NCBI GenBank assembly: GCA_001724265.1
Contig: MEDY01000189.1
Location: 1-64,000 of the forward strand
Direction: 5' to 3'
DNA from: Rhizaria sp. SCN 62-66
Lineage: Eukaryota
Length of the DNA: 64,000 nt
This document shows positions 30,001 to 62,960 of the stretch, in pieces; position 1 is the stretch's first letter; each line of letters begins with the position of its first letter. The notes under the pieces were generated by a model, which was given only the letters and a program-made list of their open reading frames with translations, had not been told where the DNA came from and did no database searches. The translations under genes were made by a program, and so were the position numbers.

Positions 30001-31150
30001 CATCATCGGGGTTGTTGAAAAACAAGAAACACAACATAGGGATAACGAACACAAAAGAGGGGGGATGCGCTTCACAAACAAAAAAGGACACACACACACA
30101 CACAAGGAGCAAAGAGGAAGGAGCAAGTTAAGTCTCAAAGAGGTACTACACTACTGCTGCAACTGCTAGATCGTCGTTGATGGTGCAAATTCTGTGATTT
30201 GTCATTCCTGTCTTGGGGGCGTCAGGAGGGTGCGAGCTTAGAAACACTTTCCGTTTGGAGGGCTGGCTTTGCCGTGCGTCGTCGAAGGGGGCGGGAACCG
30301 AGCAGTAAACACACTTTCACAGTGAACCGGGGCTGGAGCAGAGCAGAGAGCTGACGGCCTGTGCGTCAGTTTCTGTCTACGGGGCATCAGGCATCCAAAC
30401 AACAAACACACTCAGAGCTTCTCACAAGGGACTACCACGACTTCAACACACACGCGCGTCTTTAGTTCGATATTCCGTATTTCTTGGTCGTTTTCAGATT
30501 CGTCTTTGCGAGGCCGGTAATACGAGAACCACACTGCAACTTGTTGCTTGCTTTCGAAGTACTTCGGTCAATCATTCCTTGATCACGTCATCGTCGTCAC
30601 GGTCGTCTTCTTGGGGACTCGGACTCGAGGGGCAAATCACGAACGGCGGCGTTGCGCGCACATTCAAGGTCTGCAGCAAGAGATAGAGCGAAGGCAAAGA
30701 AGGGAGCGAGAGAGCAAGAGAGGAGGAGCGAAGGCGAGGCGAGGCGCGAGCAGCGGAGCAACAAGGAGGAGGGTGGAACGAAACCGGACAGCAAAGAGGG
30801 CGAAGAGCGAGCGAGAAAAAGGAGAACGGGACACGGGAGGAAGAAGAAAGCAGTGCGATGCAAGATTGAGGGCGGATGAAGAGGGAAACCGGGGCAACGG
30901 CAGCAGCAGCGGGGCGGGCGAAAGGAGCAGAGGTCGGGTCAGGTTCGAGAAGCAGAGGCGAGATTGGGGCCAAAACGCAACAAACGTGGTCAAAAAGGAA
31001 CACCGGCGGCGCGGGGAAGGGGAACGGGGAAGCAAGGGTTAAACACGAGCAAAAGCGCGTTAGTAAGGGGGAACATTGGGGGCAGGAACATTGCGTAATG
31101 CCTTGGGGACAAGCGACGACAGGTCGACACATCTCACACCATCGCTCGAG
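27050..31150 (-). ncRNA. Candidate long non-coding transcription unit or very long 5' UTR/intron
   Basis: About 4 kb with no host-like ORF. Strong strand skew (A-rich/T-poor on +), matching the T-rich sense strand of introns and UTRs elsewhere in the window. On the minus strand: TACTAAC, a polypyrimidine tract ending in CAG, and clustered GTAAGT. Transcription is inferred only. Confidence 0.35.
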
Positions 31151-31876
31151 CGTCATTCGACGGCCATTTCTCACGAAAATGACCATGGAATGCTCTCACG
31201 AAATGCGAAACGTATTAAAACCCATCGAGATTGTCATTAGTGAATCTGTTCCAACAAGAAACAGGCGACAACAGCTATTTGCTGATGATTTTCGATCCGC
31301 CTCGACTCCCCCTCGTCATTCAAACCGCTGGTCGAAAGAAGTCAGGTCGCCGACGACGGTTGGTTGCTCACAGTCACCTTGGCCAACAACAACCACAAAC
31401 GACGAACCAACATAGACGGAAAACTTCGACTAGCTGGGCCGAGAGAGTTGTTGCCTTTTCGGCGTGCAGGAGTCGGGGATAGAGTCCGACAGGAGTGCAT
31501 GGGCGCTGGCAACACGCGTTGGCTATATTTCTTGCATGCTGTCTTGTTTTTGTGCTTTCACCCGAAGTTGATATTAATGCCAGTATGTCTTGCCGTTTCG
31601 CCTCTGCTCTTCAGTCCTGTCCAACCTAACGTAACCTCTGCTTGCTCTACAAATGTCACTCACTAACAAATTATATTCGGTATAGCGTTACAAGCGACCC
31701 TCACTTGCGTATCTGTACGTCCTGACTGCTACCAGTGCTTATCTGACACAGCTGGCCCTCTTCCCGCACCTGCTACCTCATCCGTTGACGTCGTCGCCGC
31801 TGTCGTCCACAGCCCACTCTCCGCCGCAGAAGCAGCGCAACGCCCGCCGTCTCTGTCCCAATCTTTGCCGCGCAGC

Positions 31877-37792: not shown

Positions 37793-40111
37793 ATGGCCGC
37801 CGCGGCCGCGCCGTCCCCCGGCCCGCGCGAGGCTGCCGGGCTCTCGCTCTCGCTCTCACTCTCGCCTTCGCTCTCGCTCCCGGGGCTCTGGGACTGCGCA
37901 GTGCTACTCCTCGCGCTCGTGGGCCTAGCGCACTGCCTCGCGCTCCTTGCCACGCATTTCGCCGCGACGGCGCCCAATGTGGCGGCGGCGAACGTGGGCG
38001 CGCACGGCGGCAACGCCAGCTCCGGCGCCAAAGGTGTGGCCACATCCACCAGTCCGGAGCTGCAGCAACTTACTCTCGACACCACCGAGTGCTCCTGCTC
38101 CAAGTCCAGCGGCGCTGCCGCTGCGCGCACGCTCTCTGCCCCTGCGACAACCACTGCTACCCAGGCCGATGTCGCTACCGACGCCACTAACACTGCGCCT
38201 GCGGCTGCAGCTACGAGTGTGGCTACTGAGCCTGCCTCGTGTCCCGAGCTCAACTGCCCGGCGGGCTCGCGCTGCGTGTCCGGTCCTGTGCTGCGGCCCT
38301 CGCGCTTTGTCTTCCCCGCGCCCAACTCGGACCCCTCGTGGCCGGCCTGCCCGCGCTCCCGGACCCTCGCCGTGCTCCACGAAACGCTCCAGCTCCTCCC
38401 CGGCGGCGTCGGCCTCGCGCCCGCGCTCGCCGCCGCGCTCGCCACGCCCCTCTCGCCGCCCGCGGCCTCGGGCTCGGCCTCGGGCTCTGCAGTGGGCTCT
38501 GCAGTGGGGACACCTCGGGCCTCGCCAAGGGCCTCGCCAGGGGCCTCGCCCCAGGCGTCGCCGCGCGCGTCGCCCCGGGCGTCGCTCTCCGCGGCGTCGC
38601 TCTCCCGGGCCCTGCAGCAGCAGCGCCAGCAGCAGCAGCAGGGCTGGGAGGGGTGGGCGCAGGCGCAGGGGCTGCTCACGCCCATCGACGCCTTCGCCAA
38701 CGCCAACACTGTCAACGCCAACGTGAACACGCCTGCAAGCATGGGCAGTGGGCACGCCGGAGCGGGAGCGGGCGCGGGGGCGGGGGCGGGGGCTCCTGTT
38801 GTGGGCCTGAGCGCGATCACTGACGCGGTCGACCGCAGCAGCAGCAGCGGCGGTGGCGCTCTCAGTGTGCTGCAGCTGCAACTCCCGCAGCAGCTGCCGA
38901 ACACGTGCCCTGCCTCCGCCTCGGCGTTCTCCCACGCTGCCGCCGCCGCGGGCTCGGGCCCCACGTCAGCGCTGGGCAGCCCGGCCGTGGTGGTGGCGCC
39001 GGGCGTGCGGCGGCGCGTGCCCACCGTCCACATGCTCTGCGGCATGATCTGCAGCGGCAAGTCCTCAGTCGCTAAGGTACGAACGGGGCCAACCGTGAGA
39101 AACAATGAAATGATCAATGTGTACTCCGTTACATCTGTTAGTCTGTTGTTTATTTCTTGAATTGCTTGTCCTATGATAATATTCTATCTAAATCCGTGTT
39201 TATATCGTCTAACACAATCCTAAGTAACATCTTCACATCTTTGCTGACTTGCGTCCGCCACAGCGGCTGTCCCTGCGGCACAACGCGGTGATCTACTCGC
39301 CCGACACGTGGCTGCTGTACCTGTTCGGGCCCGAGTTCCCGATCTCCTCCTTTGGGCTGGTCGGCGACCAGGTCAAGGAGCTCATCTGGCGCGCGGCGCA
39401 GGAGAGCATGGCCCGCTACGGCGTCGACGTCGTCCTCGACTTCTCGCTCTGGACGCGCGCCGACCGCGACGCCTGGCGCGCGCGCATCCGGCGCGACGCA
39501 CGGAACTGGCACCGCGCGCCCGGCGCCGGCTGCGCGGGGACGGCCAGCCCCGGCGCCGGCGCCGGCGCTGGCGCGGGCGGCGACAACGACGAGGAAAACG
39601 TCAAGATCGGTACGTCAGCCAAACAAGACCATCGCATGAGTGTATCACCAATTTGTCGATTTGCAACGGAAGTGTATTTGTTGTCGTTGACCTCATCTTG
39701 GCCTATCTTGTCCTCTTTCATCTTTGTCCGCGCGCAGTGCTGCACTTCGCCGAGTGCCCCCTGGACGAGGCGCGCAGCCGCCTGGTGCGCCGCAACGCCG
39801 CCGTGGCCGCCACCAAGGCGCGCCTCCTCGCCGAGGCTGAGGCCGAGACCAAGGCCAAGGCCGCTGCGGCCGCCGCCGCCGCGAGCAAGGGCGACGCCGA
39901 CGCTGACGCCGATACCGATACTGCTGAGTCAGCAGAGTCGGCGCGGTCGTTCCAGGGCGACGACCTGAACCTCGAGGTGCCGCTGTCCTCGTTCGACGAG
40001 TGGCGTGGGCTGCTGGAGCCGCCCGGGGAGGACGAGCGGCCCGTCGTGCACCACTGCGGCAGCGGCGCGCAGCAGCACAAGCAGCAGCAAGAGCCGGCCA
40101 AGGCGCCGTGA
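37793..40111 (+). CDS. Membrane-anchored protein with C-terminal P-loop (AAA_33 / nucleotide kinase-like) domain, 3 exons
   Basis: Exons 37793-39076, 39264-39609 and 39738-40111; stop is TGA. Motifs VHMLCGMICSGKSS (Walker A), YSPDTW, GVDVVLDFSLWTRADRD, ECPLDEARSRLVRRN, LEPPGEDE. Hydrophobic segment near the N-terminus. Confidence 0.82.
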
Positions 40112-40648
40112 ACGGGCTGAGGGGCTGCAGTCCACCGAGGGGAGTGACCGGGGACTTGTTGGGTCGGTGCCAAATTGGGCCAAGATAGGATTGTTTTGAA
40201 CAATGTCATCTTACTTTAGCTTTATAACAATAAATCTTCGATAATATTTTTATCTATTGTTTGATTTCTCTTCTGTTTTCATGTGATTCTTCAATGCTTG
40301 TGTATTTAAAACGACTTCTCGCGCGCAACTACTGTCGTGTATGTTACTCTGTGTATGTCGTTGTTGTTTTATGACAGGTCTCTCTTCAGACGACACTGTC
40401 ACAGCAAACAACAACAGCAACATCGGAAGCAATAACAGAAACAGACATATATACGTTTTGGATATGACATCGACAGAATACAAGTTGTTTCGAACGACAC
40501 AAATACTACACTGAACATGAAACATAAACAGCACAAAGATTCCAAGATATCAAAAAAGCAAAATACCGAGTATTTCAAAACAATATTGTCAAACAAATAC
40601 AAATAAATTCAACCCTATATTGCACGCCCACATTTCCCTCTTCGCCCG

Positions 40649-43081
40649 TTACATCTCGGTGACGCTGACGTCGTCGAGCTCGGAGTCGTCGACGCCCTCG
40701 ACGGTGAACTGCGGCGGCGCCGACACGTCGATCTCGTCGCCAGCGTGCGCGTCCACGGTCGCCAACACGCGCCCGCCGCCTGCGGTCGGCACCGCGGCCG
40801 CGCCCGCGGCGGCGGCGGCGGCGCCGCCCGCGGAGGCCGGGGCGGCGGCGGCGGCGGCGCGCGCGCGGCGGGCGGCGGCGGAGGCGTCGCCTGCGATGTT
40901 GTCGAGCTCCACGTCGTCCGCGTCGTCGTCGTCGCCCGAGGCGAGGATGACGCCGCCGTCGGTGACCTGGCTGTACTCGTAGCGGCGCGCCGTCTTGGAG
41001 GGCCGCCAGAGCACGGCGATGGTTACGACGACGACGAAGTAGAGGATCTGCGAGAAGCCCGAGGTGGCGAGCCACTGCTGCTCCCAGCGTTCCCCGGGCG
41101 TGAGCGAGGCCGTGAGGTTGTAGAGCATGAAGACGACCTGCGCGGCGACGGCACATGACAAAACCAGCGCGAAGCGGCCCATGAGCCAGAGCTTCGCGGC
41201 CTGCTTGTGGGCGCGAAGGTACGCGATGGTGTCGTAGAGGCTGACCATCGTCCACCACGCGAAGAGACAGTCTAGGCAGTAGAGCGCGACGTCGAGTGCG
41301 AGCAGCGGCGCGGCGGCGGCCGAGGGGTCGAGCCGCGTGACCAGCTCGCGCGCGACCGAGAGCGCAAAGTAGGGCGCGCTCGTCAGCGCGAGCTTGCGGC
41401 GCGCGGCGCCGAGCGTGGGGCGCACGACGCCGAAGCCGACGGAGACTGCGACGACGAGCACGCGCGAGCCCGTCTGGTGCGCGCACTTGATGATGGCGCA
41501 CAGCACCAACAGAGGGGTGGCCGGCGCGCCCGCGGCGTTGTAGCGGTAATGGTCGGCGAAGCAGAGCAGCGCCTCGGCGACGCACGAGACAAGGATGACC
41601 GTGATGAAGCGCTGCAGCGTGATCTGGTCCTTGTTGTACACGGCCGTCAGCGCCAGCCAGACGAGGCAGACGAGAAGGTATGCCGCGGCGAGCGCGCCGT
41701 AGAAGGGCAGGAAGGGGAATAGGTGGCCCGGGAGGTAGCCGTAGGGGTTCATCCACTCGACCGTCCCGCTCACCGTGAAAGTCGCCACCTAGGCGCTGGG
41801 TGGCGCGGGCGCGGCCGACGAGTCGTCACCAGCGGCGTCTTCCTCGGCGGCGTCAGGATCGGCGTCGGCGGCGGCGGCAGCCACAGCGGCGGCGGCAGTG
41901 CTGAAGGAGCCGGTGGAGAGCGCTGAGAGGCGGCGCACCGCGGAGCTCTTTGAGTTCTTGCTCTTGCTCTTGCTCTTATCCTTGGCACCCGAGCCAGAGC
42001 CAGAGCTCGAGCTAGAGCCAGAGACTGAGCCCGAGATAGCCGGCGCGGTGAGCGAGTACTCGGTGTCGTCACACTGGGCGATCACGACGGAGTACTGGTC
42101 CGTGGCGTTGATCGCCAGCCGCACGCCGGGCCCGCGGTAGTCGTAGTCGCTACCGTCGCCGTCCAGGTCGCTCGCGCCGGCGTCCGCCCCAGCGCCGGAG
42201 CCGGCAGTGCCGGTGCTGGCGCTGTCGCTGGAAGGATGGAACAAAGGAGAAATAACCAGATATAAAGATGATAGTGAGAAATCAACCAACTAATACAACA
42301 CTCACTTCTCTCAAAAACCAAACAAATACAGCTGTAAATCTGATAAACACGAGATAGATCCTCAATGAGGCGTGTGGACGCACCTGCCGGGAAGCGCGGG
42401 GCCCTGCGGGGCCAGCACGGCCTTGACCGAGGCCGAGCTCTGCCCCGCCGGGATCGTCACCGTCATGCGGTGCCACGGCCGCAGCGCAGCCGAGCCCGTG
42501 CGCGGCGCGAACACCACCGGCGCGCCGCTGCTGCTGGTCTGGCCCTTGGCTCCGGCGTTGCCGCCAGTCTGCTGCTGCTGCCGCAGCTTCTCCTCTTCGT
42601 CGGCGCGCGTGTAGACGCGGCCGTCGCGGCACCAGAGGTACTCGTCGGCGGTGGCCTCGTCGCGGCCGAAGTACGTGTCTGCGGGCGCAGTGCCCTGCAA
42701 CACGAAGACATCTAGCACCGACTCCTTGTGGAAGCGCGGGTCCGAGTGCGCCGCGCCGGGCCGCAGCAGCACGCGCGCAGGCGGCACCGACAGCGCGCGC
42801 GTCACCGTCAGGTCCACCGTCACGAACGCGCGCCCGTTGCCCGGCTCCAACGCCGCGGGCGCGTCCTGCGGCGCGTAGACGCGGGCGAGCGATAGCGAAG
42901 TCAGCGTGCGCGGCGCCAACGCCTGCGGACGCACGGGGAACACCTCGGCGCGCGCCAGGGGCGCCAGCGCGGCCGCCAGGACCAGCAGCAGCGCCGCGAG
43001 CGCGAGGCGAGGCACGCGCAAGAGGCCGGGCGCGCGCGGGGATGCGGCAGCGGCGGCGGCAGAGGCGGCGGTGCAGAGCAT
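40649..43081 (-). CDS. TMEM87/GOST (lung seven-TM receptor family) protein, 2 exons, with one in-frame TAG
   Basis: Exons 43081-42384 and 42227-40649; stop is TAA. Signal peptide, YSVVIAQCD, SGTVEWMNPYGYLPG, VSVGFGVVRPTL, EQQW, LWRPSKTARRYEYS. TAG at 41789-41791 lies in frame between the luminal and 7TM parts. Confidence 0.9.
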
Positions 43082-43567
43082 GCTGGACTCTTTGAGAGGA
43101 CCGCGAGCCGGGGAGGCGCTGGGGACTGTTACGGAAAAGAAACGCCAACGGTCTGCGACTGAAACACCCGCGAAAAACCGGCGAATGACAGGAGCTCGCG
43201 GGGCTTGATAAGATTGGACACGGTGCCGAGGAGCGACGTGAGGTGACGCTCGTCTGGGATGGATTGTATGGGTATATCAGACGTATACAGAAAAAAAGAA
43301 AAGTAAAATGAGTTGAAGTTAATGCTTACAATTCGGAAATGGAAGAAGATACTAAAGTGTCGACCAAAATATCGCGGGGTTCGCCTTTTTTTGCGACATG
43401 CCAAAGCCATCATCAGAAATCGCAACGAACCACCAGTCCGCCATTGTAGGCAGAGGCAAAGGCGAAAAACATGTCAAACCAAGCATATCGATGATAAACA
43501 GTCGTAAAATCACGTGGAATCTATGTATTGCTTTAGTTAAGTAGTCTTATTGCGCATTACAGCATTT

Positions 43568-45937
43568 TTACCTCCTGCGCGGCGCGGTGTCGAGCGCGGC
43601 CTGGAGCCCCGCGCGCTCATGTTCGCTCCGGAGCAGCGCTGCCTGAGCAGCGCTGAGCTGCTGCTGCAGCGAGGCCACGCGGCCCTCTGCAAGCCGCGCC
43701 TCGGCCAGCTGCGCCTCCGCGCGCTGCACCTCAGCCCGCAGCCGCGCAGCCTCGTCCTAGCCGCCCGCGGCTGCGGCTATCGTCGTCGCGGCCACGGCCA
43801 CAGACGCGGAGGCGGCGGCAGCGGCGGCCGCCTTGTCGTCCTCGAGGGCCTTGACGCGCGCGCGCAGTAGCGCCAACTCCTGCGACGCGGCGCGCAGGTC
43901 CCGCTCGGCGCGCGCGCCCGCCTCGGCCATGCTGTCCGCGCGCGCGCGCCAGTCTGCGGCCTCGCGCTCCGCCCGCAGACGCGCGGCCTCGACCGCCTCG
44001 ACCGTCTCCACGGAGGCCGAAGGGGGCTGTGCGGCGGACGGCTGCTGCGGTGCAGCGGAGGAGGAAGAGGAGGAGGAGAAAGAGGTGAGCTCTACCTCGA
44101 GCGCGCGGACCCGGGCGCGGGCGGCGTCAGCCTCGGCCTCGGCAGCGGCCTTGGCGGCACGCAACCTAGTGTGCAGAGTCAGACAGATAAACAAGAGTTA
44201 GCGGAGTAACGAAAGAGTCAAAGAGGCAGGAAAGTGAGGAGTAGAACAATTCAAGATACAAGATATGAGAGAGCTTCAATTTAATAATCATACATATACA
44301 CATTTAAAAAAAAAAAGAACGACAATTTCTTAATATGCAAAAACGGTGAACTATACTCCACGAAAGCTGAAGAGCGTAAGAATAGCGTACCTGGCCTCTG
44401 TGTCCTGCGCCTGCGACACGGCCGCGACGGCCGAGTCGAGCGAGCCCTGGCTCTGCGCAATCTGCCCCAGGAAGCCCTCGCGCTGCGCCAGGAGCGCCTG
44501 CGCCTGCGCGTTGAGGTCGGCCACCTGCGCCGAGAGATGCGCCGTGACGAGCCGGTGGTGCTCCTCGCGGTCGATGGCCGTCGCCAGCTCGGTCCGCGCC
44601 GCCAGGGCGCCGCGGCCGATGGCGCGCAGCTGCTCGTCCAGCGCCGCCTTCTCCTCCCACAGCGTCTCCAGCTGCGCCCGCAGCGCCGCCACCTGCGCGC
44701 GCAGCGCCGGCGCCGACGCCGAGTCCTCTTCCTCGTCGTACGGATCCTTCTTGCCATCGCTCTGGGGCTTGGTCTCAGACTGCTGCTGTTTGCTGTCCTG
44801 CGCGGGGTTAGCTTCGGGGGCAGCCGTCGCCGTCGCCGCCGCGTTGCCGCCGCTGTTGGCGTTGGCGTTGGCGAGCGCGGCCTTGAGTGCGGCGACCTGT
44901 TTGCGCAGCGTCGCGACCTCGCCCGCGTGCACCTCGGCGGCGCCGCGCCACTCGCCCGCCTCGGCCTGCGCCGCCGCCGCGTCCCGGCCCGCCGCCAGCG
45001 CCCGCGCGCGCGCCCGCGCCAGCTCACCGCGCGCGTCGTCGCGCTCCAGCTCGGTGCGCCGCTGCAGGTTCGCCATGCGCCGCACGTCGTCGCCGCGCGC
45101 GCCGGCCTCGGCGGTTGCCGCCGCCAGCGCTGTCTGGGCCGCGGTGAGCGCGGCGGCGGCGGCGGCCTGCGCGGCGCGCGCGTCGGCCAGCTGCGCGCGC
45201 TCGGGCAGTGCGTCAAGCGCCTCGCGCAGCGCGCGCGCCTCGTCCGAGCGCGTCTGCAGCGCGGCCTGGGCCTGCGCCAGCCGGCTCGCTGCGTCGGCGC
45301 GGGCGGCCACCACGGTCACCAGCTGCGCCCGGACAAGCCCCGTGCGCGCGTCCGCCGCCTGCGTCTCGGCGCGCGCGTCCGCCAGCTGCTTCGCCAGCGC
45401 GGCGATCTGCGCCGCCAGCTGCTCTGAGCTCGCGCGCGAGAGTCCCGCCTCGCGGTCGCGCTGCTCTAGCGCGGCCGCCTGCGCGCGCGAGGCGGCGAGC
45501 AGGGCCTGGAGGCGCTGCAGCTGGTCCGCCTGCTGCGCGCAAAAGCCCGCCACGGCCGCGTAGTTGCGCTTCAGCGTCAGCACGTACTCCAGGTCCATCT
45601 GCAGCGTCGCCAGGGAGGAAATGTCGCCCGCAGAAGGGGCGGGCGCAGGTGCAGATGATGAGCCCGCTGCCGCAGAGGCTGATGCTGTGGCCGCTGATGA
45701 TAACGATGTCGAGGTTGCAAAGGCTGACTGTGACGTCTGCGGTCCTTGGGTTGCGCCCGATGAGGCCGCAGACGCGAAGAAGAGCGAAGGACCCATCTGT
45801 GGCTGCGGCTGTTGCTGACCAGAGGAACTAGGACTGGGGAGAGCTGAAAAGTCGCCGAAGTCATTGGCTGTAGCTGAAGCCGTGTTGTCAGTGCGGCGAC
45901 GGCCCGCAAGAATGGGGTTTGCCGTCGACGTCGACAT
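43568..45937 (-). CDS. Long coiled-coil protein of unknown function, 2 exons, with one in-frame TAG
   Basis: Exons 45937-44391 and 44165-43568. Heptad-rich A/E/Q/R/L sequence continues for 62 codons beyond TAG 43757-43759 to TAA 43568-43570. That end could instead be a GTAAAA donor. Confidence 0.8.
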
Positions 45938-46324
45938 TGATCGCTGTGGTTGTCTCTGCAACAAGACACAACTGTGTGAGGTTCGGGATAGTGCTTGTGG
46001 TGCTAAATAAGGAAGGCTGTAGCAGAGCAAAAATGCTACATTGTGAGTGACCATAATAAAAAAAGAGATTAAACGCCAAGAATGTTCACACGACGTTGAA
46101 TATAATTTAACTGACGATCAAAACATCGAGATATGATCAATTCTAAATAGTGGACCGTTTTTCGAGTCGTCCCAGCCAGCCAATCGACCTCGAAAGTCAG
46201 CGATTGACCGTGGGCAAAACGGGGAGCCTGGTGGCGGCTTAAGTTTAAGTAAGGGCAGGTCGACAGAGATGAGGGGCGACTTTGCAAGAGCTCGTTCTTG
46301 TCCAAGTGTTTCCATCTGTGAACA

Positions 46325-48615
46325 ATGAAGGGTTTCTGCCTTTTGTTTGCTTTGGCTGCGCTTTTTGCAAGCGCCCTCGCTTACACAGCGGTACGTATCG
46401 CGCCCTATCCCGCCTGCCATGTTGCCCCCAAAGGGGAACTGGCTCTGCTCTCGCTTCCTTTGCTTTCGCCCATTTCCAGCATCTGCACATCCATGTTTGA
46501 ATCCCTGCGTACTTCCATGCGATGTTATACTCCGCAGAGAATCTCGTGCAGTGCTGGTGAGCGCGTGTGTCCGCCTCTTTTGCCACTCCAAGCCCCCTTT
46601 TAAGTCTTCTCGAGCCACTCCCCTCTACCAATCGACTCAGTGCTTTCCTCTCCTCTCTCACACCCCATTCTCTTCACCCCTATCCATTTTCACGCGTCCT
46701 TCGCCTTGCTTTACTATAGGAGGAGAGTCTTGCAAACCGTGTGACCACGTCTGCGGGGCCTAGTGCTTCGTTCGTGGATATGTACTCGGAGACTCACGCC
46801 GAGGGCGAGATGTCTGCTGAGGAGGCCTACCAGCTCGAGGCCCAGCAGGAGGCCGACGACGCCGCTCTCGTTGAGATGTCGTCTGCCGTCGCCTTCGAGA
46901 CTGAGCTCGATGCCGCGGCCGAGACCGAGACCGAGGCCGAAGTTGACCGCCGCCGCCGTCGTCGTCGTCGTGGCGGCATCATCCGCCGCATCTTCGGCCG
47001 CCGCCGTCGTCGCCGCGGACGTCGCGGACGTGGACGTGCCGCTCCCCCGCGCATCATCCACCGCGCTGCCCCCGCTGCTCCCGCTGCCCCCGCAGTGGAC
47101 AACACCGCCGTCCAGGCCGCGGTCGCCGCCGCCCGTGCGAAGGCTGAGGTCGAGGCCGCCGCCGCCGCCAGGGCCGCCCGCGCCAAGGCCGACGCCGACA
47201 TCGCCGCCGCCGCCGCCGCCGCGCGCGCCAAGGTCGAGGCCGAGGCCCGTCTGGCCGCCGAGGCCAAGGCGCGCGCCGAGGCCGAGGCCCGCGCGCTGGC
47301 CGCTGCCCGCGAGAAGGCCGCCCGCGAGGCGCGCGAGAAAGCTGCGCGTGAGGAGGCGATCCGCGCCAAGGAGCGAGCTGTCGCCGAGGGCAAGGCCAAG
47401 GCCGAACGCATCCGTCTGGCGCGCATCGCGACGCAGAAGCGCATCGCCAACGCGAACCAGAACGTGATCAAGAAGATCGAGAAGGCTCGCCGGCGCTCGC
47501 AGAGCTGGAAGAACCGCGAGAGCGCCATTAAGACCTCGCACGACACGATCGCGAGCGACTTCAAGAAACGCGAGGCCGTCAAGACTCAGGGCGCGGTGCA
47601 GATCGAGGCCGCCGTGGCGAAGCTTAACGTCCTCGCTCGCGAGATCAAGCGCGAGATCAAGGAGGTTGAGCAGAAAAAGGTCGAGCTCGACGCCAACACG
47701 CGCATCATGGCGCGCGCCGCCATCAAGAAGGAGGGCTCGTACCTCGGCGGTCACATCTCGTACCAGCCCGACGTGGCGGGCCCGCGCTTCCAGGCCGAGG
47801 CCAACGGCGCGCCCGCCGTCATCCAGACGCTCGAGCTGGGCAAGAACATCGCGCCCGCTGAGCACGGCCGCGGCTTGATCGACGACAAGTTCAAGGCCGA
47901 CTTCGCGTCCAACCTGCGCGCCGGCAACCTCGAGGCGCAGGCCCGCGCGGACCGCCCCGGCATCCTGGAGGACATCCGCCACGCGGCCGCGTTCGACGAC
48001 GGCGCTGACGGCCCCACCAAGGCTCAAGCCGAGCTCTCGGACAAGTTCCTCGACGGCTCCTTCCTCGAGACGCTCTCCGAGGCCGACGCCGAGGCTGAGG
48101 CCGAGCTCGATGCTGAGCTTGACGCCGAGGAGGCCGCTATGGCCGAGGCTGAGGCCGACGCCGAGGCTGAGGCTGAGGCTGAGGCTGAGGAGGAGACTGA
48201 CGCTGACTCTGAGGCCGATGCGGACGCTGACGCCGAGGAGGAGGCCGACGTCGACGCCGATGCTGACTCTGAGGCCGACGCCGAGGAGGAGGCCGAGGCC
48301 CCCGAGTCGTTCATGGAGACCGAGGCCGAGGCTGACGCTGCGGCCCTCAAGGACGCCGAGATCGTCAAGATGGAGGCCGAAGCCAAGGCGGCCGAGGACA
48401 AGGCCATGGCGCGCGCCCGCTCTGAGATCAAGAAGATCGACAACTTGGCGGAGCAGCACAAGTCTAACCACGCGCGCCTCACCTCGACCTTCGACTCGAG
48501 CCGCGCCAACTCCGCGGCCTCCGACCTCGAGGCCACCACCAAGACCAAGAAGCTCGACCAGGACCTCTCCAAGTTCGAGCAGCTCGCCAAGCAGGTCGAG
48601 GCCATGGTTGAGTAA
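46325..48615 (+). CDS. Secreted preproprotein (signal peptide, acidic pro-segments, poly-Arg segment, coiled coils), 2 exons, about 653 aa
   Basis: Exon 1 (46325-46390) encodes MKGFCLLFALAALFASALAYTA. Phase-0 intron 46391-46719. Exon 2 (46720-48615) ends in TAA. Strongly biased codon usage suggests high expression. Confidence 0.88.
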
Positions 48616-49152
48616 GCAATAAGTCTTGGCTCGACTCTGTCTTTGTTGTTTGGTGTTGAGTAGTTTTTCTCGTGTGTTGGTGGATAACCTGTCGCGCAGG
48701 TTTACAAAGAACAATTACAACAACTCTCATTTTCTCTTTCGTCCACAGCAATATGAATGAATGTGTGTCGCGCCCGTGTGGGTCTCCGTGAGCCGTGAGT
48801 TGGTCGGAGGGAGCTCCGGACTGACACTGGATGAAATCAATACACATCTTTACTTAAAACAGATATCTACGAGTATTGTTAACAGATTGGTGGTTATTAT
48901 GACGATAACGAATGTGTATTCCTCTAGATAATGGGTGCCAGTGCTATGTCTTTCAGTGCAACTTAAAAGCGTAACAAGCGAATCTGCAATCATATTCACT
49001 GTGAATCAGCTTGTTCAAGTACTGTTAATACATGTTCTCGTTGATAACGTTTAAATAGTTCTCATATCGCGAAATTCTATCATTTTGAAATTCACATCTG
49101 ATTTGTCCCTCGGCAAAAGTTTGTTATCCTTCCTCATATGAAATGCGTGCAC

Positions 49153-52100
49153 TCAGAAGTGGTTATCCCTGATGTCCACCTCGATCTCCTGTCCTAGGCT
49201 GAACACCGTCCCCCCGGTTCCGGCTCCCGCGCCGCCGCTGCGACCTAGGCTCACACCGCTGCCAGTAGCCGTCGAAGAAGAAGAGGAGCCACCGCTGACG
49301 CTGGCGCTACCGTCGAGCGCGAGCGCGAGCGCTGCCGCGGTCGAGGGCGGCGCGGCGGGCGCAAGCGTGGGCGTGCACAGGTGCGCCAGCGCCAGCTCGC
49401 CCGCAAGCTCCGCCGCCAGCAGCGCGAACGACGGCGCGCTCGACAGCCGCGGCAGCCGCGGCGCGCGCGCGTCCGCAGACTCGCCGTCGCTCGCTGTCTC
49501 TCTCGCTATCGGGCCTGAGCCGGGGCTTGCGGGGCTGTGCTGCGACGGGAACTCGGGCGCCTGCGCCTGCCATGCCACCGGCGCGGGCTTGGACCAGAAG
49601 GACGCGAACAGCGAGAGCGGCCCCGACGACTTCGGCCGCGCCGTCTTGTGCGACTGCGACTGCGAGCTGCTGTTGGAGCTGCTGTTAGAGCCATTGCTGT
49701 TGCTGCTGCCGTTGTTGCTGTGCTTCGGCGCCATGAACGCGGCGAGCGCGGCCTCGAGCGCGGCGACGTGCGCTGCCGCAGCGTCGCGCGCGCAGCGCAG
49801 CTCCGCGCCCCGCAGCGGCGGCGGCAGCGCGGGCGGCGCCAGGCACGCGCCGCCCAGCGCCAGCGCCTCGCCGCGCGACAGCCGCGCCAGCGCGCGGGCC
49901 AGCGCCGCCGCCGCCTCCGCCTCCGCAGCAGCCTCCGCGGCAGCCTCGGCAGCAGCCTCCGCGGCGGTCTCGGCGTCAGCCTCGGCGTTCGCAGTGCAGC
50001 CACCCGCAGTCGCGCTGCAGCGGGGCGCCGCGTCCGCGGCGCACTGCTCCTGGAGCGCGCGCGCGGTCTCGGTGGCGGCGGCGAGCAGCCCCAGCACGTC
50101 GGCGACGCGGAGCCCTTCGAGCGCGGCCCGCAGGCGCGCGGCGCCGGCGTCCGGCGCGGACCGCGCGAGCGCGAGCACGGCGCGCGCGGCGACTGCGGCT
50201 ACGCCGCGCCGGGCGCCCGCGCGCTCGCGCTGCAGCCACCCCTCGGCCAGCGGCGCCGCCAGCGCCAGCGCGTACAGGTGACCCAGCGCGGCGCGGCGCT
50301 TGGCCGCGGACGCGCCCGCGATGGGCACCACAGCCAGTACGGCGTCCCACTCGCTCCCGCCCGTCGCCGGCGCAGACGCGGCCGCATGTTCACGCGCGGT
50401 GCCCGCGGACGTCACGGAGCCTGCGGCGGCACCCGCAGAGGGCGGGTGGCCGGCAGCGAGCGCGGCAACGGGGTCTGTCCCCGCAGCGGCGGCGCGCGCG
50501 AAGGCGGCGCGAGCGAAGAGCGGCGGCGCGGGCGCGTGCAGATAGGGGTTGAAGCTGGGGTGCGCGGCCACGGCGGCGAGCGCGCGCGGGGCCGCCGCGA
50601 AGGGCCGCAGAGGCGCCAGCAGCGCAAGCGTGAGGCGGGCCGTGTAGGCGCGCGCCACGGCACTGCCGGCGCGGCACGCGCGCGGACACAGGTAAGGCGT
50701 CTGCAGCGTCAGCAGCCTCAGCCACGGCGCCGCGTCCTCCTCGGCGCGCGCGAGGCACCGCGCGCAGCGGGGCTGCGGCTGTGGCAGGAGCAGGGGGCGG
50801 AGGAGCGCGGCGGCGACGTCGGTGTGGGCGCCAACGGCGGGGCAGTCGCCGTGCGCGGCCGCCGCAGCCGCGCTGCCGCATCCGCCGCCGGCGGTCGCGC
50901 CCGCACCGACGCCGAACACGGCGCGAGGGCTGCCGGCTCCATTGCTGCTGCTGTAGCCGGTGGGCGCCGGCGCGGCGGGAAACGGGTAGGCGTACGTGTT
51001 CGAGTCCAGGTCCGCGCAGGCGCCGCAGCGTGCGAGCGACAGAAAGCCCGGGCCGGCCAGCCCCGCCGCAGGCAGCAGCGCCGCAGCAGCGTCACCGCCG
51101 CCGCCTGGCGAGGCGAGGAGGCGCACGGCCGAGGCGCCGGCGGCGTCAACCGCGGCCTGCACAAGCCGCCGCGAGCGCAGCGCCTTGGCCGCGAACGACG
51201 ACAGAGAGGGCTCGCCCGCGCTCGCGGCCGCGGCGGCGGCGGCCGAGGAGGACCGCAGCAGCGCCCGGGCCGGGACGGAGGCCGACACGGCGGCCGCCGG
51301 CGCAGACGACACCTGCTGGTGCTGCTGCTGTGCGCCATGCTGGGCACTGTGTTGCTGCTGCAACGACGTGCGCGGAAGCAGCAGCGGGAGCGAGCCGCCG
51401 CCAACGGCGCCGCCCGCGCGCAGCAGCGCCGGCGGGGCCGCCACGGCCGCGCCCAGCACTGCCCGCGCCGGCGCGCGCGGCCTCAGCGCCGCCACGGCCG
51501 CCGCCGACAGCAGCGTGCCAGTGCCGGGGCCGGGGCCGTTGGCCGCGGGGCCGGCACAGTCGCAGTCGCGGGCAACCCTGTACTCGGCGTCAGCATCGTC
51601 GTCGTCGCCGTCGTCGTCGTCGTCGAGACCGCTCCCCCGGCCGCTGGCGGCACCGCCCTGCTCGCGCCCCTCAGCGCCCGCGCGCACTGGTGCAACAGCC
51701 CCGTCGGCGGCCCGCGGCGCGGGCGGCGCGGGCGGTGCGGGCGGCGTGGGCGTGACCGCGAGCAGCTGCTGCACGCGGCACGCGGCAGCCAGCGGCACCA
51801 GCGCGGGCGCCAGCGGCGCGTCGTGCGGTGCCACGTGCTCCGGCCGCGGCGCGGGCATCAGCGCCCGCTGCGCCCGCAGCGCGCCCTGCGCGGCCACAAA
51901 CATGCCGGAGCCATAGACAGGGCCGGAGCCAGTGTGGCTGAGGCCGCGGCTGTGCGCGGCGAGGCCCCAGGAGCGGAGCGCGCGGCGCGAGAGCGGGAGC
52001 GTGGCCGCGGCGGCCTCGACCGCAGTCCCGCCCAGCGCCAGCACCAGCGGCGCGGCCGCGAGACGCCGCAGCAGGTACAGGTCCACGACGCCCACCACGA

Positions 52101-55100
52101 GCGCGCGCGGCGTGTGCAGCGACACGCGCGCGCCCGCCGCAGACGCAGACGCGCGCGCGAACGCGGCTGCGGCTGTCGCGGCAGCGGCCAACGCTGCGGG
52201 CAAGGTGGAGGACGAGGCGGCCGTCGCGGCGGCGACGGCGGCGGCGGCGCTGGCTGCCGTGGCCGCCGCCGCAGTGGCCGCCGCCGCAGTGGTCGCGGCC
52301 ACGTCCGCGGCCGTGAGCGCGGCGATGATGGGCTCTAGTAGTGGGTTGCCGACCGAGAGCAGCGGCACCACGCCGCCCGCCAGCGCCGGGCCCGCCAGCG
52401 CCGCACCGCGCGGCTGGGCGGGCGCGACCACGGGCAGCGGCGTAAGCGCGGCGTGCGCGGAGAGCGGCGCGGCGAGCGCGGCGACGGCCAGCACGGCGCG
52501 CGACACGGCGGGCGCCGAGGGGCCCGCGACAAGCACCGGCACGCCCGCCAACACGGCCGCCCACAGAGTCGGCAGCAGCGGCGCGAGCCGCGGGCCCAGC
52601 ACGGCCAGCGCGTCCACGGCCGCGTGCGGCGCGTTGAGGCCCGCCAGCGCCGCGGGCGAAGCCGAGACGGCGTACGGTAGCGCAGCTGGCGCGCCCGCAG
52701 CAGGCGCAGGCACGGGAGTCAGCGTCTGTGCGGTCGTCGTCGGGGGGCAGAGCAGCGGCCGGTATGCGGGGCCGGCCCAGACGCGGCCCCAGTCGCACAG
52801 GCCGCGGGGGGCCCCGCAGCCGCCGCTCCCGCTGCTGTCGCAGCTGGTCGAGTCGAGCAGGGCCGAGAGGGCGCGCCACGGGCGCTGGCGCGGGCGCAGG
52901 GCGCCGAGACCGTGGCTCGCGCCCGCAGCCTCCGCGAGCACCGGAGACACCGCAGCCAGCATCCCGACTGCGCCGGAACCAGCATCCGCATCAGCACCAG
53001 CATCAGCATCAGCATCAGCATCAGCGTCAGCGTCAGCGTTCGTGTCAGCGTCAGCGTTCGTGTCAGCGTCAGCGTCAGCGTCAGCGTCAGCGTCAGCGTC
53101 AGCGTCAGCGTCAGCGTCAGCGTCAGCGTCAGCGTCAGTGCGGGTACGGGCGCAGGTGCGGGCGCTCTCGAAAGCGGCGGCCCGCTGCAGCGCGGCGTCG
53201 AGCGGCGAACGCGGAGCCGCCAGCAGCAGTGCCGCCACGGCCGCCGCGCCCACCGCCAGCCCCGCCGCGGGGTCGCAGCTCGCTGTGTGCGCTGTGTGTG
53301 CTGTGTGGTGGAGCACCGAGGCCATGAGGCGCCGCGCGCACTGCAGCATGGGCCCCAGCCCCGCGGCCCCGCCCAGCGCCACCCGCTGGCCCTGCGCGCC
53401 CGCCCCCATCGCTTGCGACGATGTGTCGTCTGCGGGCGCGAGGGCCTGCGCGGCAAGCAGCGGCAGCAGCCCCGCGCGCGCGGGCGGGGCCCAGAGCGCC
53501 GCGGTGGCCGCCCACGCCGCGCACAGCACCGCCGCGGGGCCCGCCAGCGCCGCAGACAGCTGTACCCCGGCCACCGTCAGTTCGCCGGCCGCCGTCAGCT
53601 CACCGACCGCCGTCAGTTCGCCGACAGGCTCTGATGCTGTCGCAAGTGCAGTCGCTACGGTTGAGGCATCACTCTCGGGCGATGTGGCTCTGTGCTGCTG
53701 CTGCTGCTGCTGCTGCTGCAGCTTACGGTGTCGCCGCCGCAGCTGTCGCAGCGCGCGCGCGCGGAGCCTGTCGGCCGCGCGCTCGGTGGCGGCGTGCGCG
53801 TCGGCCCGGCTCAGCGCGCGCGCCTCGGCCGCGAACGAGTCCACCACACACGGCGACTGCGCATACGACTGCGGCTACAACTGTGCGTCTGACTGTGACC
53901 GTGGTGCGCAGGGCAAGAGCCCCCAGAGCGCGGTGGCGGCGTCGGCGGCGAGCGCGAGTCCCAGGGCGTGGAGCGGCAGCGGCAGCAGCGCGAACACGGC
54001 CTGCTGCGCGAACCCGCGCGGGCTACTCTCGTCGCGCACGCGCGCGAACCGCGCGTACCCGTACAGCACGCGCACGCCAGCGCTGGCAGCGTCAGAGGCG
54101 CCTGCGTGGGCGGGGGCGTGGGTGTCGCTCTGGAGCAGGGCTGCGGCGGCGGCGCGGGGCGCTCCCAGGGACGGCAGCTGCGGGTGCGGCCGCCACCCCC
54201 AGTCCGCAGCAGCGTCGGTGTCAGCGGCAGCAGCGGCAGCAGCGGCAGCAGCGGCAGCAGCGGCAGCAGCGTGAGCAGCGTGAGCAGCGTGAGCAGCGTG
54301 AGCAGCGTGAGCAGCGTGAGCAGCGTGAGCAGCAGCGGAGCCGGTCTGCGCGAGTGCTGGAGCGACCGTAGCGGCGTCGGCGAGCGCGCGCGGGGCGACG
54401 CAGCTGGCGCCCCAGAGCCCGCGCGCGACGGCGCGCTCGGGGCACTCGTTGCTGTGGCTGCTGTGGTGGCCGTTGTGGCCGCCGCCGCTGATGCTGCTGC
54501 TACTGCCGTTGCTGTTGTTGCTCCTGGCGCTGGCGCCGCCGTTGTCGCCGCCGTCGTCGCCGCTGTCGCCGCCGCTGTCGCCGCTGTCGCTGCTGCTGCA
54601 GTCGCCGAGCCCCTCGCCCGCCCAGCCCCAGGGCCGCGCGGAGTGCCTCGTCGCACGGGCCGCCCGCGCCGCGCGCGTGGCAAGGGCGGCGCGAGACTGG
54701 GGTGACTGGGACTGGGACTGGGACTGGGACTGGGGCTGGGGCTACTGAGGCTGGGATGATTGAGGCTGGGACGATTGAGGCTGAGGATGAGACTGTTTGT
54801 CCCGCTTGCGCTCCAGCAGCGCCCGCAGCCCGCGCGCGGCCGCGCACCGCGACAGGCCCGCATCGCAGTCTGCGTCACCGACAACGCTCGCACGGGCGCT
54901 GCCCCCATTGCCGTGACCGTTGCTCCTGCTTGCAGTAGCAGTGGCCGCAGGAGCAGCAGCAGTGAGCGGCAGCGGGGGGCGCGCGAGCGCGACCTGCACG
55001 GTGAAGCAGTGCGTGGTGTCGGTCTCGGCGGGCGAGAAGGTGGCCGAGTCGGGGAAGGCGAGCGCGCAGGCGGAGGCCACGGCGGCGGCCGAGAGCCCGT

Positions 55101-55290
55101 GGACCGGCGGCGGCGGCCACAGCGCGTACGGCCGCGGGCCGTGGTAGAGGTCGAACGTACACGCGCCCAGCAGCGTCACCCAGGGTGAAAATGCCGCCGG
55201 CGGCGCGGCGTGCCGCAGCGGCACCGCGGCGCGCGCGGGCGCGCGGGCGGGCCCGACGGAGGCGGGCGCGGGCGAGGGGGCCGAGGGCAT
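49153..55290 (-). CDS. DENND6: DENND6/FAM116-like Rab GEF, single frame of about 2045 aa with two in-frame TAG
   Basis: ORFs 54742-55290, 53875-54075 and 49153-53847 share one frame. The only interruptions are TAG at 54742-54744 and 53875-53877; stop is TGA. Motifs in order: CTFDLYHGP, LAFPDS, LYGYARFARVRDESSPRGFAQQAV, LWAAVLAGVPVLVAGPS..AVLAVAALAAPL, VVGVVD, FNPY, LYALALAAPLAEGWL. Confidence 0.88.
52995..53138. repeat. (GCGTCA)n hexamer repeat encoding Asp-Ala repeats in DENND6
   Basis: Tandem TCAGCG/TCAGCA units, directly visible. Confidence 0.9.
54223..54336. repeat. 9-nt tandem repeats encoding poly-Ala and (His-Ala-Ala)n in DENND6
   Basis: AGCGGCAGC units followed by AGCAGCGTG units, directly visible. 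Confidence 0.88.
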
Positions 55291-56080
55291 CGGGCGGGGC
55301 GGCCGGCGAAGGCGGCAGCGCGGGACTGCTGCGCGGAGGGGACGCGATCTCGTGGGCTGCGGGCAGTTGAGTTAGGAATGTGTTCTAGTCAGCACTAAGG
55401 GCAGATGAAAAACTGGGAGACATAGGGGAAGCAACGAGCTGGTGAGATAGATTTGAAAAAGGCAGGGTGAACTTGAAACCATAGTACTATTAAGACTGAC
55501 TACGAGTTGATTTCGAGGTTTGAGACGATATAATACAAGTATGTGAATACACTGTCATAAAACATCACATTATTAGTAGTAAATCATGCAACGGTAATAT
55601 ATAGTATGAATAGGCTGGTTGCTCCCGTTTGCCACAGGGACGCGAGACTGTGGGGGAACCTGCTCGTAACGCCATAAAATAAGGTTCTGCTTGGTCGAAC
55701 TCGATATTACCATCGTCAAATGCCACACAATCAAAGTATGGTGAACAACCTACTTGTTTTTACTTGTTCCGTTAATTATACTTTTCGAATTTGTTATGAT
55801 GTTCCTATAGCCGATGAGACAAGGAAAGTCGCGTCCCACACCAACTCACGTCACCACCTCCGCAAGTCAGCCTCCCAGCCTCTTGAGAGTTGAATCCAAA
55901 GCCCAGTTTGTTTCTTTAATGTGGCTACTACTTAATCCATCATGTTTGTTTCACGCTATCTGTATTCCGCTGCATTTTCTGTCTCCAAGCACCGCTCACC
56001 CCTTCTCTTCAAAAATTTATCCTTCATGCCGTCGACACAAACGCGTGTGCTTGTATGTTCACTGCCAGGGCATTCCCGCG

Positions 56081-60856: not shown

Positions 60857-61340
60857 GGCGGCTCGGCTCTGGTTCGGGAGCTTTACTTAGTGCGGCAGAT
60901 TTGGATAAAGCTCTACGAAGCAGGTCGACCGTTACTAGCGCTAAAATTATAAAATCCAAATAAAAAATTAGCGTGTAAGTTAACTCATTCAATTATACGC
61001 AATAATACTACCTATGTATGCCACAATCCAACATCTACTAAAGTCGTACTTGACTCCGATTCGAACCGAAGAGTAAGGACCATGCGCCAACCACAAATCA
61101 CTCCCATTCACCTTCAAGTGCATCATTCTCATTCAAACATCACCCGACCAGGACAAAACAAAGTTAACAAGTTAAAAACCTTGTTATATACTATTTTACA
61201 TGATAAATAACAACGCAGCACCAACTACACATAAATATATCCTGAGACAGAGGCCCCTGCACCACCAGGCCCACTCACTCGACTGGGCACACGCGTTGCA
61301 CTCAAGCAATGCCTCGCTCCCCGGCGCGGGCGCCCCCAGC

Positions 61341-62960
61341 TCAAGCGATCCCGTGCGCCTTGAGCAAGGCGTCGACGGCGACGCGGACGTCTGCGAAGTC
61401 GTGCTTGGGCTGCTGCAGCGGGAGCGAGGAGCGCGGGATCGACCCCGTGCGCACGAAGACCGAGTCCCAGCGCGGGCCCGCTCTGTTGGCGCCCTCGATG
61501 TCCGCCGCGGGGTTGTCGCCGACGCCGTAGCAGCGCGCGACGGCGGCCCCGTGCGCGGCGGCCTGCGCGTCGAGCAGCGCGTCGGCGTGCGCGTAGGTCG
61601 CGGCTGTGGGCTTGCCGCAGACGACGGGATGCAGCGGCTCGCCTGTCACGCGCGCATAGAGGTACCCCAGCACCTCGGTAAAGGCGCCCTGCGCCAGCCG
61701 TGGGACGTCGAAGCGCGCCGAGTAGAGCAGGTCCGGGTTGGACAGGTAGAAAGGCGTGTGGCGCGGCGCGTAACCCCCCCGCAACGCCTGAGCGACCGTG
61801 TAGAGCTGCGACGGACCCAGGTGCGGCGCGCCGCAGTAGGGCGCAGAGGCGCGCTGCGCGCCCGCGGGCTCGTGCGCGGGGTCCTGCGGCAGCCCGAACC
61901 CGCTCGCGCCGCCGGTCGACGCGATCTCGGCCCCGGCCTCAGGGGCAGCAGAGGAGGCGAGGTTGGTGGTGCAGAGCTTGCTGTAGGTGTGCGAGGCGCC
62001 CTCACCGCCCGTGCACTTGCCCTTGTCCTTGCCTCTGCCACACTCACGCTCTGCGGCGCGCTCGGCGACGCGCTCGGGGCGGCCCGCGAGGAGCACGTCG
62101 AGGCAGACCTGGAGGTCGACGTACCAGTCGCGCGGGTCGTGGAGTACCAGCACCGCCTTGACCTCGCCCAGCAGCGCGCGCGCCTCGGCGACGGCGTCGC
62201 TGCCGTCCGCGCGGCGCCCGTCAGACGCGCGCGCCGTGGGGTAGTGCAGCGGGTCGAGCGAGGTGTGCGGGGACAGCAGCGAGCCGAATTGCGCGTGCAC
62301 GTCCGCCGGCGTGATCACGCGCGAGAAGCCGTACGCGCGCGCGACGGCCGCGCAGTCGCGCATGCCAACCACAAGCACCAGGTCCTCGCCGTGGCGCGCG
62401 GCGAGCGGGCGCAGCGGCGAGTGAGATAGCACCACCTGCTCGGGCGCCACGGGCAACGCGAAGAGCTCCGAGAGCTGCTGCGCCTTGACCGACTCGAGCA
62501 CGCCGCCACCGTTGGTCAGGTAGATGTGCGGCAAGCCCGCCGCAGCAACTGGGGCGGGGAGCACATATAGCAAGGAGGACAAGGTGGGGTCGTGTGATGT
62601 GAGTTAAAGCAAAGCAAAGCGACAACGATGCGAGTGTAGAGATGGGCGCGTTTATGAAGGGCAAGCGAGGCGAAGTGGAACTGATTAGATATGAGACACA
62701 AGGAAGAGTCTTATGGGAAAAGTACACGCGACACAATAAAAACAGATGTTAACTGTGAGATATTGAGCAAGGATACGCGTTCACGTACCTTTGTGGAGCG
62801 CTTCCTTGGCTCCCGGGATGGGGTTGCCACTCTTGAGAAGAACACCATCGATGTCGAAGGCAAAGGCGGGCAGCGCAGGCTTGGCAGCAGATGCAGCAGC
62901 CGAAGAAAACGCACGCACACCTAAAGAGGAAGCGACACGTGCAACAGCCTTACGAAGCAT
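61341..62960 (-). CDS. HAD-IIA hydrolase, CECR5/HDHD5-like, with mitochondrial presequence, 2 exons
   Basis: Exons 62960-62789 and 62548-61341; stop is TGA. MLRKAVARVASSLGVRAFSS presequence. Motifs FAFDIDGVL, LTNGGG, SHSP, SNPDL, PRLAQGAF, CGKP, GVGDNPAADIEGAN, VRTG. Confidence 0.92.

Follow-up and report, generated by a model that had tools for sequence, protein, structure and literature searches.

Nuclear genetic codes that separate UAG from UAA are rare; the papers cited here describe them in two lineages outside the ciliates and in a few within them (PMC5304391, PMC11687900, PMC10553269). Reassignment of UAG alone, with UAA kept as a stop, has been described in Iotanema spirale, where UAG is read as glutamine (Gln), and in the rhizarian exLh, where it is read as leucine (Leu). 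The in-frame stops of both organisms were exclusively UAG, and the predicted mechanism was a tRNA(CUA) together with subtle changes in eRF1 (PMC5304391). In exLh, 71 genes were reported to hold 384 in-frame UAGs, and alignment at conserved sites settled which amino acid they encode (PMC5304391). Phyllopharyngean ciliates make widespread use of UAG as Leu or Gln, with suppressor tRNA genes identified and UAA as the preferred stop (PMC11687900), and Oligohymenophorea sp. PL0344 encodes different amino acids with UAA and UAG (PMC10553269). Here we analyzed the first 64,000 nucleotides (nt) of contig MEDY01000189.1 (assembly GCA_001724265.1, filed as Rhizaria sp. SCN 62-66), hereafter the window, in which three adjacent minus-strand genes are interrupted by four in-frame TAGs (41789, 43757, 53875 and 54742). 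These TAGs exist and are internal to coding sequence. They resemble neither termination sites nor the typical introns of the window, and independent samples carry two of them as well. The best explanation of the window, and on balance probably the correct one, is that UAG is a sense codon in this organism and that UAA and UGA are its stops.

The pattern that we propose for the window is that of Iotanema and exLh, both of them eukaryotes outside the ciliates in which UAA still terminates and only UAG is sense. It differs from exLh in holding four TAGs in about 18 genes, none of them at a conserved site, against 384 in 71 genes, and it differs from both in that the organism is GC-rich, has AT-rich introns and uses UGA as a stop as frequently as UAA; neither a tRNA gene nor eRF1 was seen in the window. 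The phyllopharyngean ciliates likewise reassigned UAG alone and were found in metagenome-derived eukaryotic genomes (PMC11687900), whereas the window shows a GC-rich, intron-rich protist with no suppressor tRNA in its 64 kilobases (kb). PL0344 shares the decoupling of UAA from UAG, but both codons are sense there, whereas UAA is the stop at nine of the 18 gene ends in the window. Translation table 15 of NCBI reads TAG as Gln; this table opens all three genes, although Gln itself is unsupported in the window. The earlier note on this DNA had stated that reassignment of UAG alone is known in few lineages, and such lineages are described in PMC5304391 and PMC11687900. Our literature search returned no report of a UAG-only code in a GC-rich wastewater protist, which does not prove that none has been published. 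Should it be real, the code of the window would probably represent a new lineage, independent of the known cases; it would be a new lineage and not a new type of code, because UAG-only reassignment is already known.

Four in-frame TAGs in three adjacent genes

The plus strand reads CTA at 41789-91, 43757-59, 53875-77 and 54742-44, and the four TAGs are placed on the minus strand as follows.

41789..41791, minus strand, TAG no. 1: codon 379 of about 758 in the GOST/GPR107-like gene, 25 codons before the seven-transmembrane (7-TM) domain
43757..43759, minus strand, TAG no. 2: in the coiled-coil gene, with the TAA end 62 codons downstream
53875..53877, minus strand, TAG no. 3: codon 472 of the DENND6-like gene, 15 codons past conserved block 2
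54742..54744, minus strand, TAG no. 4: codon 183 of the DENND6-like gene, within a 15-nt repeat rich in S, Q and P

A long minus-strand open reading frame (ORF) continues in frame on either side of each TAG, confirming the earlier proposal that the four codons split three neighboring genes, and over their roughly 3,500 codons these genes were free of frameshifts and of any other stop. The GC-rich segments holding the TAGs (40640-42233, 43569-44177 and 49182-55375) are 71-78% GC, as was claimed when the TAGs were described as lying in GC-rich coding sequence with no AT-rich intron upstream; there was neither a pyrimidine tract nor an AT-rich stretch upstream of any of the four. The 17 coding pieces of the window (9,688 codons) contained four in-frame TAGs and no in-frame TAA or TGA. 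The claim that the intact genes lack in-frame TAA and TGA agrees with these two zeros, which are partly built in because the pieces were picked as open frames.

We scanned the window for stops with 30 open, positively scoring codons on either side and obtained 16 sites. Three of the 16 beat all five other frames on both sides, namely TAG 41789, TAG 43757 and a plus-strand TAG at 55145, and there was no TAA or TGA among the scan sites that did so. The best-scoring codon frame was the same before and after each of the four TAGs, except upstream of 54742, where two frames tied over 150 nt and frame 0 was the best over 300 nt. Frame-0 codon scores in the 150 nt upstream were +0.31 for 41789 and +0.49 for 43757, compared to -0.55 to -1.11 for the other frames, and the score downstream of TAG 43757 was +0.22.

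The plus-strand TAG 55145 lies in frame in an ORF (54917-55408) with a coding-like score, on the strand opposite the conserved N-terminal part of the DENND6-like gene. We consider this ORF probably an antisense artefact, because the homology is carried by the minus frame. Other TAGs were rejected as candidates. TAG 13912 is the acceptor of an AT-rich intron, and TAG 35314 is in an AT-rich stretch, modelled as an intron, just past the exon for phosphatidylserine synthase (PSS). TAG 18387 was called as a gene end by a crude gene finder; the call was spurious, because the stop of that gene is the TGA at 19497.

The first of the interrupted genes encodes a GOST/GPR107-like 7-TM protein and consists of the following parts.

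42384..43081, minus strand, exon 1: signal peptide and most of the luminal domain, with 35% identity to residues 30-174 of protein P0002 (E 3e-26)
42228..42383, minus strand, intron: 156 nt, 38% GC, GTGCGT...TTCCAG, typical
40649..42227, minus strand, exon 2: end of the luminal domain, TAG loop, 7-TM domain and acidic tail, with TAA at 40649-51

The gene fits the GOST/GPR107 type in that the PF06814 7-TM domain (E 5e-45), whose match begins 25 residues after TAG 41789, is preceded by a luminal domain that aligns to P0002. The latter is a 590-residue orthologue from another metagenome, encoded by a single ORF that is uninterrupted where the window gene has its intron. It shares 58% identity with the window protein over 397 residues of exon 2; the alignment starts 14 residues before TAG 41789 and runs gap-free across the TAG into the transmembrane domain, and P0002 also aligns with the strand just before the loop. 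TAG 41789 is placed in this loop, which is an expanded, low-complexity part of the luminal domain. Judged from these alignments, TAG 41789 is internal to coding sequence. When metagenomes were scanned with the GOST exon, four loci were returned, two of which were 100%-identical fragments of the same organism that fell short of the TAG; the other two were distant AT-rich homologues (35% and 26% identity) with the same layout as the window gene. The contig of the 58%-identical relative was not among the four.

The third interrupted gene, which carries two of the TAGs, encodes a DENND6-like protein.

49153..55290, minus strand, DENND6-like gene: single 6,138-nt exon of 2,045 codons plus TGA, interrupted by two TAGs only
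54955..55191, minus strand, conserved block 1: residues 34-112 with the LAFPDS motif, before TAG 54742; matches residues 21-95 of protein P0133 (34% identity, E 5e-05)
53923..54114, minus strand, conserved block 2: residues 393-456, VLYGYARF...RGFAQQAVF, between the TAGs; matches P0133 191-255 (37%, E 2e-07)
52333..52620, minus strand, conserved block 3: residues 891-986, cDENN/SPA-like, after TAG 53875; matches P0133 323-423 (E 2e-07)

An exhaustive HMMER search of 1.84 billion representatives (E <= 0.001) with this gene returned 326 proteins. The top two were the window's own fragments and almost all the others matched the D/A repeat; one, P0133 (849 residues), is a real homologue, with a whole-library E of 3.2e-08. 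P0133 is collinear with the window gene, matching it before, between and after its two TAGs, and TAG 54742 falls between two conserved N-terminal (longin/uDENN-like) blocks. Pfam gave no match on the whole DENND6-like protein or on three of its blocks, and the family name rests on P0133 because Pfam was blank on the window protein; residues 323-423 of P0133 are in its Pfam SPA domain (PF08616; 26.9 bits versus a cut-off of 22), and its nearest atlas clusters are DENND6/Avl9. A protein search around TAG 53875 returned nothing at E <= 0.001 and so placed no orthologue residue opposite that TAG. The collinear blocks indicate that TAGs 54742 and 53875 are internal to coding sequence. Because the standard code stops at the internal TAGs, the GOST/GPR107-like and DENND6-like genes would lose essential domains under it.

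The conserved DENN blocks are spaced by 280 and 435 residues in the window gene versus about 95 and 68 in P0133. We observed many low-complexity inserts in this and the other genes of the window, including (DA)n, (HAA)n, poly-A, poly-Q and S/Q/P repeats.

The gene between these two encodes a coiled-coil protein.

44391..45937, minus strand, first coding exon
44166..44390, minus strand, intron: 225 nt, 36% GC, GTACGC...CACTAG, typical
43568..44165, minus strand, last exon: TAA at 43568-70, right at the switch from GC to AT

This gene is without a homologue, and TAG 43757 was judged internal to its coding sequence by composition and codon usage alone. The sequence downstream of the TAG has a GC content at third codon positions (GC3) of 0.82 and no stop in 40 codons.

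Gene ends, introns and transcripts

We counted 18 gene ends in the window, comprising nine TAA, nine TGA and no TAG.

TAA gene ends: 5324, 14185, 17089, 24722, 34207, 40649, 43568, 48613, 58698
TGA gene ends: 19497, 24293, 33266, 40109, 49153, 57896, 61341; less certain, 2640 and 18334

The earlier tally had given nine TAA, eight TGA and no TAG; the nine TAA and the lack of TAG stood, and the count of TGA was revised to nine, two of them less certain. We compared the 120 nt after each of the 18 TAA or TGA ends with the 120 nt after each TAG. The GC content was 0.34-0.63 downstream of the TAA and TGA ends versus 0.66-0.79 downstream of the TAGs, and GC3 was 0.28-0.62 versus 0.82-0.95. The codon log-odds ranged from -0.12 to -1.05 after the TAA and TGA ends and were +0.51, +0.35, +0.28 and -0.16 after the TAGs. 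A further in-frame stop followed within 40 codons at 16/18 TAA or TGA ends versus 0/4 TAGs. The four TAGs are therefore unlike termination sites. A few 3’ untranslated regions stay GC-rich for 60-90 nt past the stop (61257-61341 and 24296-24360), with more in-frame stops soon following, and composition alone misses some gene ends for this reason.

The gene ends bear on the possibility that UAG is still a stop but is usefully read through, by a suppressor or near-cognate tRNA or by virtue of its context, in an ambiguous code or as programmed readthrough. Ambiguous stop/sense codes have been reported (10.1101/2022.04.12.488043 and PMC4967479), and the extreme rarity of in-frame TAG (4/9,688 codons), restricted to tolerant linkers, would suit such a scheme. 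However, TAG was found at 0/18 gene ends, and there is no motif common to the four contexts, in which the next bases are G, G, C and C. Partial readthrough would also be very costly, because two TAGs are in one gene of 2,045 codons and another precedes a 7-TM domain. We regard readthrough as an improbable account of the window.

The introns of the window were characterized from a set of 22 modelled introns with exons of at least 100 nt on both flanks. A two-strand gene finder, which yields spurious tiny introns and merges genes, was used solely for approximate exon ends and for the intron list. The 22 introns are 31-53% GC and end in a pyrimidine tract followed by CAG or TAG (examples are 12453-12628, 25410-25626, 39077-39263 and 44166-44390). 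Their donor is unusually uniform, with GTACG in 16/22 (mostly GTACGT or GTACGC) and GTAAG, GTATG, GTGCG or doubtful donors in the others.

This set allowed us to weigh the proposal that the standard code applies and that each TAG is in, or ends, an unusual GC-rich in-frame intron (an ‘exitron’) that is spliced out before translation. All four TAGs are in dispensable linkers between conserved blocks, and introns of this genome can end in TAG, as at 13912 and 44166. For TAG 41789 there is a consensus-like, in-phase GTGCGC donor 147 nt upstream, which would give a 150-nt intron, and for 54742 an intron is conceivable, as two consensus-like donors, both out of phase, are found 103 and 149 nt upstream and the codon signal in the preceding 150 nt is ambiguous. 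However, any GT-AG candidate that would excise a TAG in frame is 62-75% GC and lacks a pyrimidine tract, compared to at most 53% GC in the 22 well-flanked introns. The 150-nt candidate before 41789 is about 75% GC and shows clear frame-0 codon usage (+0.31), as does the 150 nt before 43757 (+0.49), where the upstream exon has no consensus-like in-phase donor and where a contig of run X6 is contiguous over 43645-43843. The sole consensus-like in-phase donors for 53875 sit within conserved block 2, which splicing would remove, and the GTACG donors upstream of 54742 also fall inside conserved blocks. In addition, RNA contigs of run X5 on the GC-rich exons are collinear with the DNA, with aligned spans of about 370-900 nt among the matches listed. 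From their composition and splice signals, the TAGs are unlikely to be in introns, and we give the exitron proposal as a whole only a small chance of being right.

The read and contig evidence came from four runs; it is confined to the matches listed, many of which are short matches of unrelated GC-rich contigs. A contig of DNA run X4, from a different study (2025), spans 41601-42204 including TAG 41789 with 0 differences, and a contig of run X6, from a further study and filed as RNA-Seq cDNA, spans 43645-43843 including TAG 43757, also with 0 differences. Among the matches listed, no variant was reported at the TAG positions in any of the four runs. No covering piece was listed for TAGs 53875 and 54742, which rest on the window alone, and no RNA cover was listed for TAG 41789; neither result is evidence either way. 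We consider it unlikely that the TAGs are assembly errors. An alignment to a DNA contig of run X3 ends at 54750, leaving 45 letters unaligned, at the S/Q/P repeat beside TAG 54742 (54745-54750); this break may be a repeat-length variant or an assembly tip.

Run X6 has nearly zero depth in two intergenic bins where the DNA runs reach 5-12, giving it an RNA-like look. The presence of TAG 43757 in transcripts is supported by X6 as weak evidence, because the rating of the run was ‘probably DNA’ and the depth of its exon bins is raised by GC-rich contigs from unrelated sources. Contigs of run X5 from polyA-RNA cover the DENND6-like gene at 51803-52215, 52497-52971 and 53192-53639, and an X5 RNA contig covers the coiled-coil gene at 44565-45010.

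These data also bear on the idea that the code is standard and that the mRNA is edited from UAG to UGG (A-to-I). Editing of this kind corrects genes with premature stops in some filamentous ascomycetes. It is specific to UAG and spares TAA and TGA, which fits the observed pattern, but the X6 contig, from a cDNA library, reads TAG at 43757, the organism is outside the fungal clade in a PSS tree, and three affected genes in about 18 are far above the frequency of the fungal cases. We consider editing very improbable.

UAG as a probable sense codon

The claim that UAG is sense and that UAA and UGA are stops was upheld as the best-supported explanation, although it is inferred from only four codons and 18 gene ends. 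Under this explanation we infer that the ribosome inserts an amino acid at the TAGs. The change would be a UAG-only stop-to-sense reassignment akin to NCBI table 15 or to the codes of Iotanema and exLh, in which a tRNA with anticodon CUA would read UAG and not UAA, and in which eRF1 would have lost or weakened its recognition of UAG. TAG makes up 4/9,688 codons and all four sites are in variable, low-complexity linkers. Such rarity and confinement to the variable linkers of long proteins would be expected soon after a codon was freed and recaptured; slow decoding might be an alternative cause of the rarity. A fuller account is that an uncultured GC-rich, intron-rich wastewater protist, with no sequenced close relative, independently reassigned UAG alone and is at an early stage, in which the codon is gone from gene ends and is back in about 0.04% of codons, only in tolerant disordered linkers. 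We are evenly divided on this fuller account.

The residues opposite the TAGs did not agree on an amino acid. P0002 has Glu, in a variable loop, opposite TAG 41789. Around 54742, the 15-nt repeat units read TCC CAG CCT CAA TCG / ...TCA / ...CAG TAG, which by eye places the TAG opposite Ser, and around 53875 the stretch TAG CCG CAG TCG parallels TAT GCG CAG TCG, which by eye places the TAG opposite Tyr. These repeat contexts suggest recent point mutations in tolerant linkers and not a codon meaning. The earlier assignment of UAG as probably Gln found no support in the inconsistent Glu, Ser and Tyr; it is a guess by analogy with known codes.

Several observations weigh against UAG as a sense codon. 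All four TAGs are in poorly conserved, low-complexity linkers, and there is consequently no aligned conserved position that could name the amino acid or demonstrate translation. Transcript evidence reaches one TAG at most, through a run that the read tool rated ‘probably DNA’. Given the codon usage of a training set of 5,455 codons, TAG is the product of 68% of the single-base changes that create a stop, and the probability that four of four would be TAG under random nonsense mutation is 0.22; ‘TAG only’ is therefore weak evidence, because codon usage makes most random nonsense mutations TAG. Off-frame TAG is itself rare on the sense strand (17 + 24, versus 101 + 116 for TGA, in 9,688 codons), and finding no TAG among 18 ends, at an expected share of 14-20%, has a probability of about 0.02-0.07. 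This probability is low without being negligible, because all frames of the sense strand contain few TAGs. The earlier note had offered the TAG-only pattern and the lack of TAG ends as evidence; the pattern is there, but with these probabilities (0.22 and about 0.02-0.07) its weight is less than was stated. In-frame TAG is also 4-6 times rarer than off-frame TAG and is therefore still strongly avoided. Finally, all four TAGs are in three adjacent genes (about 3,500 codons) and none is in the other 12 pieces (about 6,170 codons), a clustering that is mildly odd under a uniform rate.

The bias of random nonsense changes toward TAG, the clustering in adjacent genes and the repeat contexts, which suggest recent point changes from TCG and TAT, would also fit a standard code in which the TAGs were true nonsense mutations, in young pseudogenes or in null alleles taken up by the assembler. 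This would require three of about 18 genes to be broken in a compact expressed region, yet with no frameshift or further stop in about 3,500 low-complexity codons and with an unimpaired codon bias after each TAG. Runs from other studies and other years carry two of the TAGs, and polyA-RNA contigs are found on the DENND6-like gene downstream of its TAGs as well as on the coiled-coil gene. We assign nonsense mutation a slender chance.

If UAG is indeed a sense codon here, the organism would combine three unusual traits: its genome is GC-rich, it stops at both UGA and UAA, and it uses the new sense codon very rarely. For this reason it might represent the intermediate debated by the codon-capture and ambiguous-intermediate models. 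On the fuller account given above, it would show codon capture under way in nature, in a nucleus where two stop codons still function. Each further independent case tests ideas on the co-evolution of release-factor specificity and suppressor tRNAs. In practice, standard-code gene callers split the genes of this organism at TAG; the database fragments P0001, P0126 and P0127 end or start at TAGs, and P0126 (182 residues, 100% identical) is a fragment of the window ending exactly at TAG 54742.

Composition, relatives and other features of the window

The contig carries dense eukaryotic genes and the 64-kb window contains no N. Its GC content is sharply two-peaked, with exons at 70-78% (GC3 0.8-0.95) and introns and intergenic sequence at 33-45%, and exon borders are readable by composition alone because of this bimodality. 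ARAGORN, also with introns allowed, and Rfam found zero tRNA in the 64-kb window, and Rfam found no rRNA or other match.

Several studies of bioreactors, wastewater and activated sludge yielded metagenomes with near-identical DNA, which was also found in polyA metatranscriptomes (X5 and X13 are runs that contain the organism); the source is therefore an uncultured protist. The DNA runs X1-X3 contain 96-100% of the words sampled from the window. A single-gene tree of PSS placed the organism outside the well-supported fungal and animal clades, amid protist sequences, where it groups with the PSS of a metagenomic relative (P0007). A scan of genome contigs with the window PSS as query gave no match. 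Among named homologues of the window GOST protein, that of Andalucia godoyi is the nearest, with no more than 34% identity. A related organism appears in other metagenomes, with a GOST protein (P0002) 58% identical and a PSS (P0007) 80% identical to those of the window.

A region of about 5 kb (26600-31700) has an intermediate GC content of 0.52-0.60 and a strong purine skew on the plus strand (AT skew 0.47 at 28-30 kb). It has no frame with a positive coding score, and the gene finder places tiny doubtful exons in it. The translation of a two-exon minus-strand gene (24722-26594) resembles, by eye, the PhoPQ-activated pathogenicity-related protein family. This family is known from bacteria and some amoebae.

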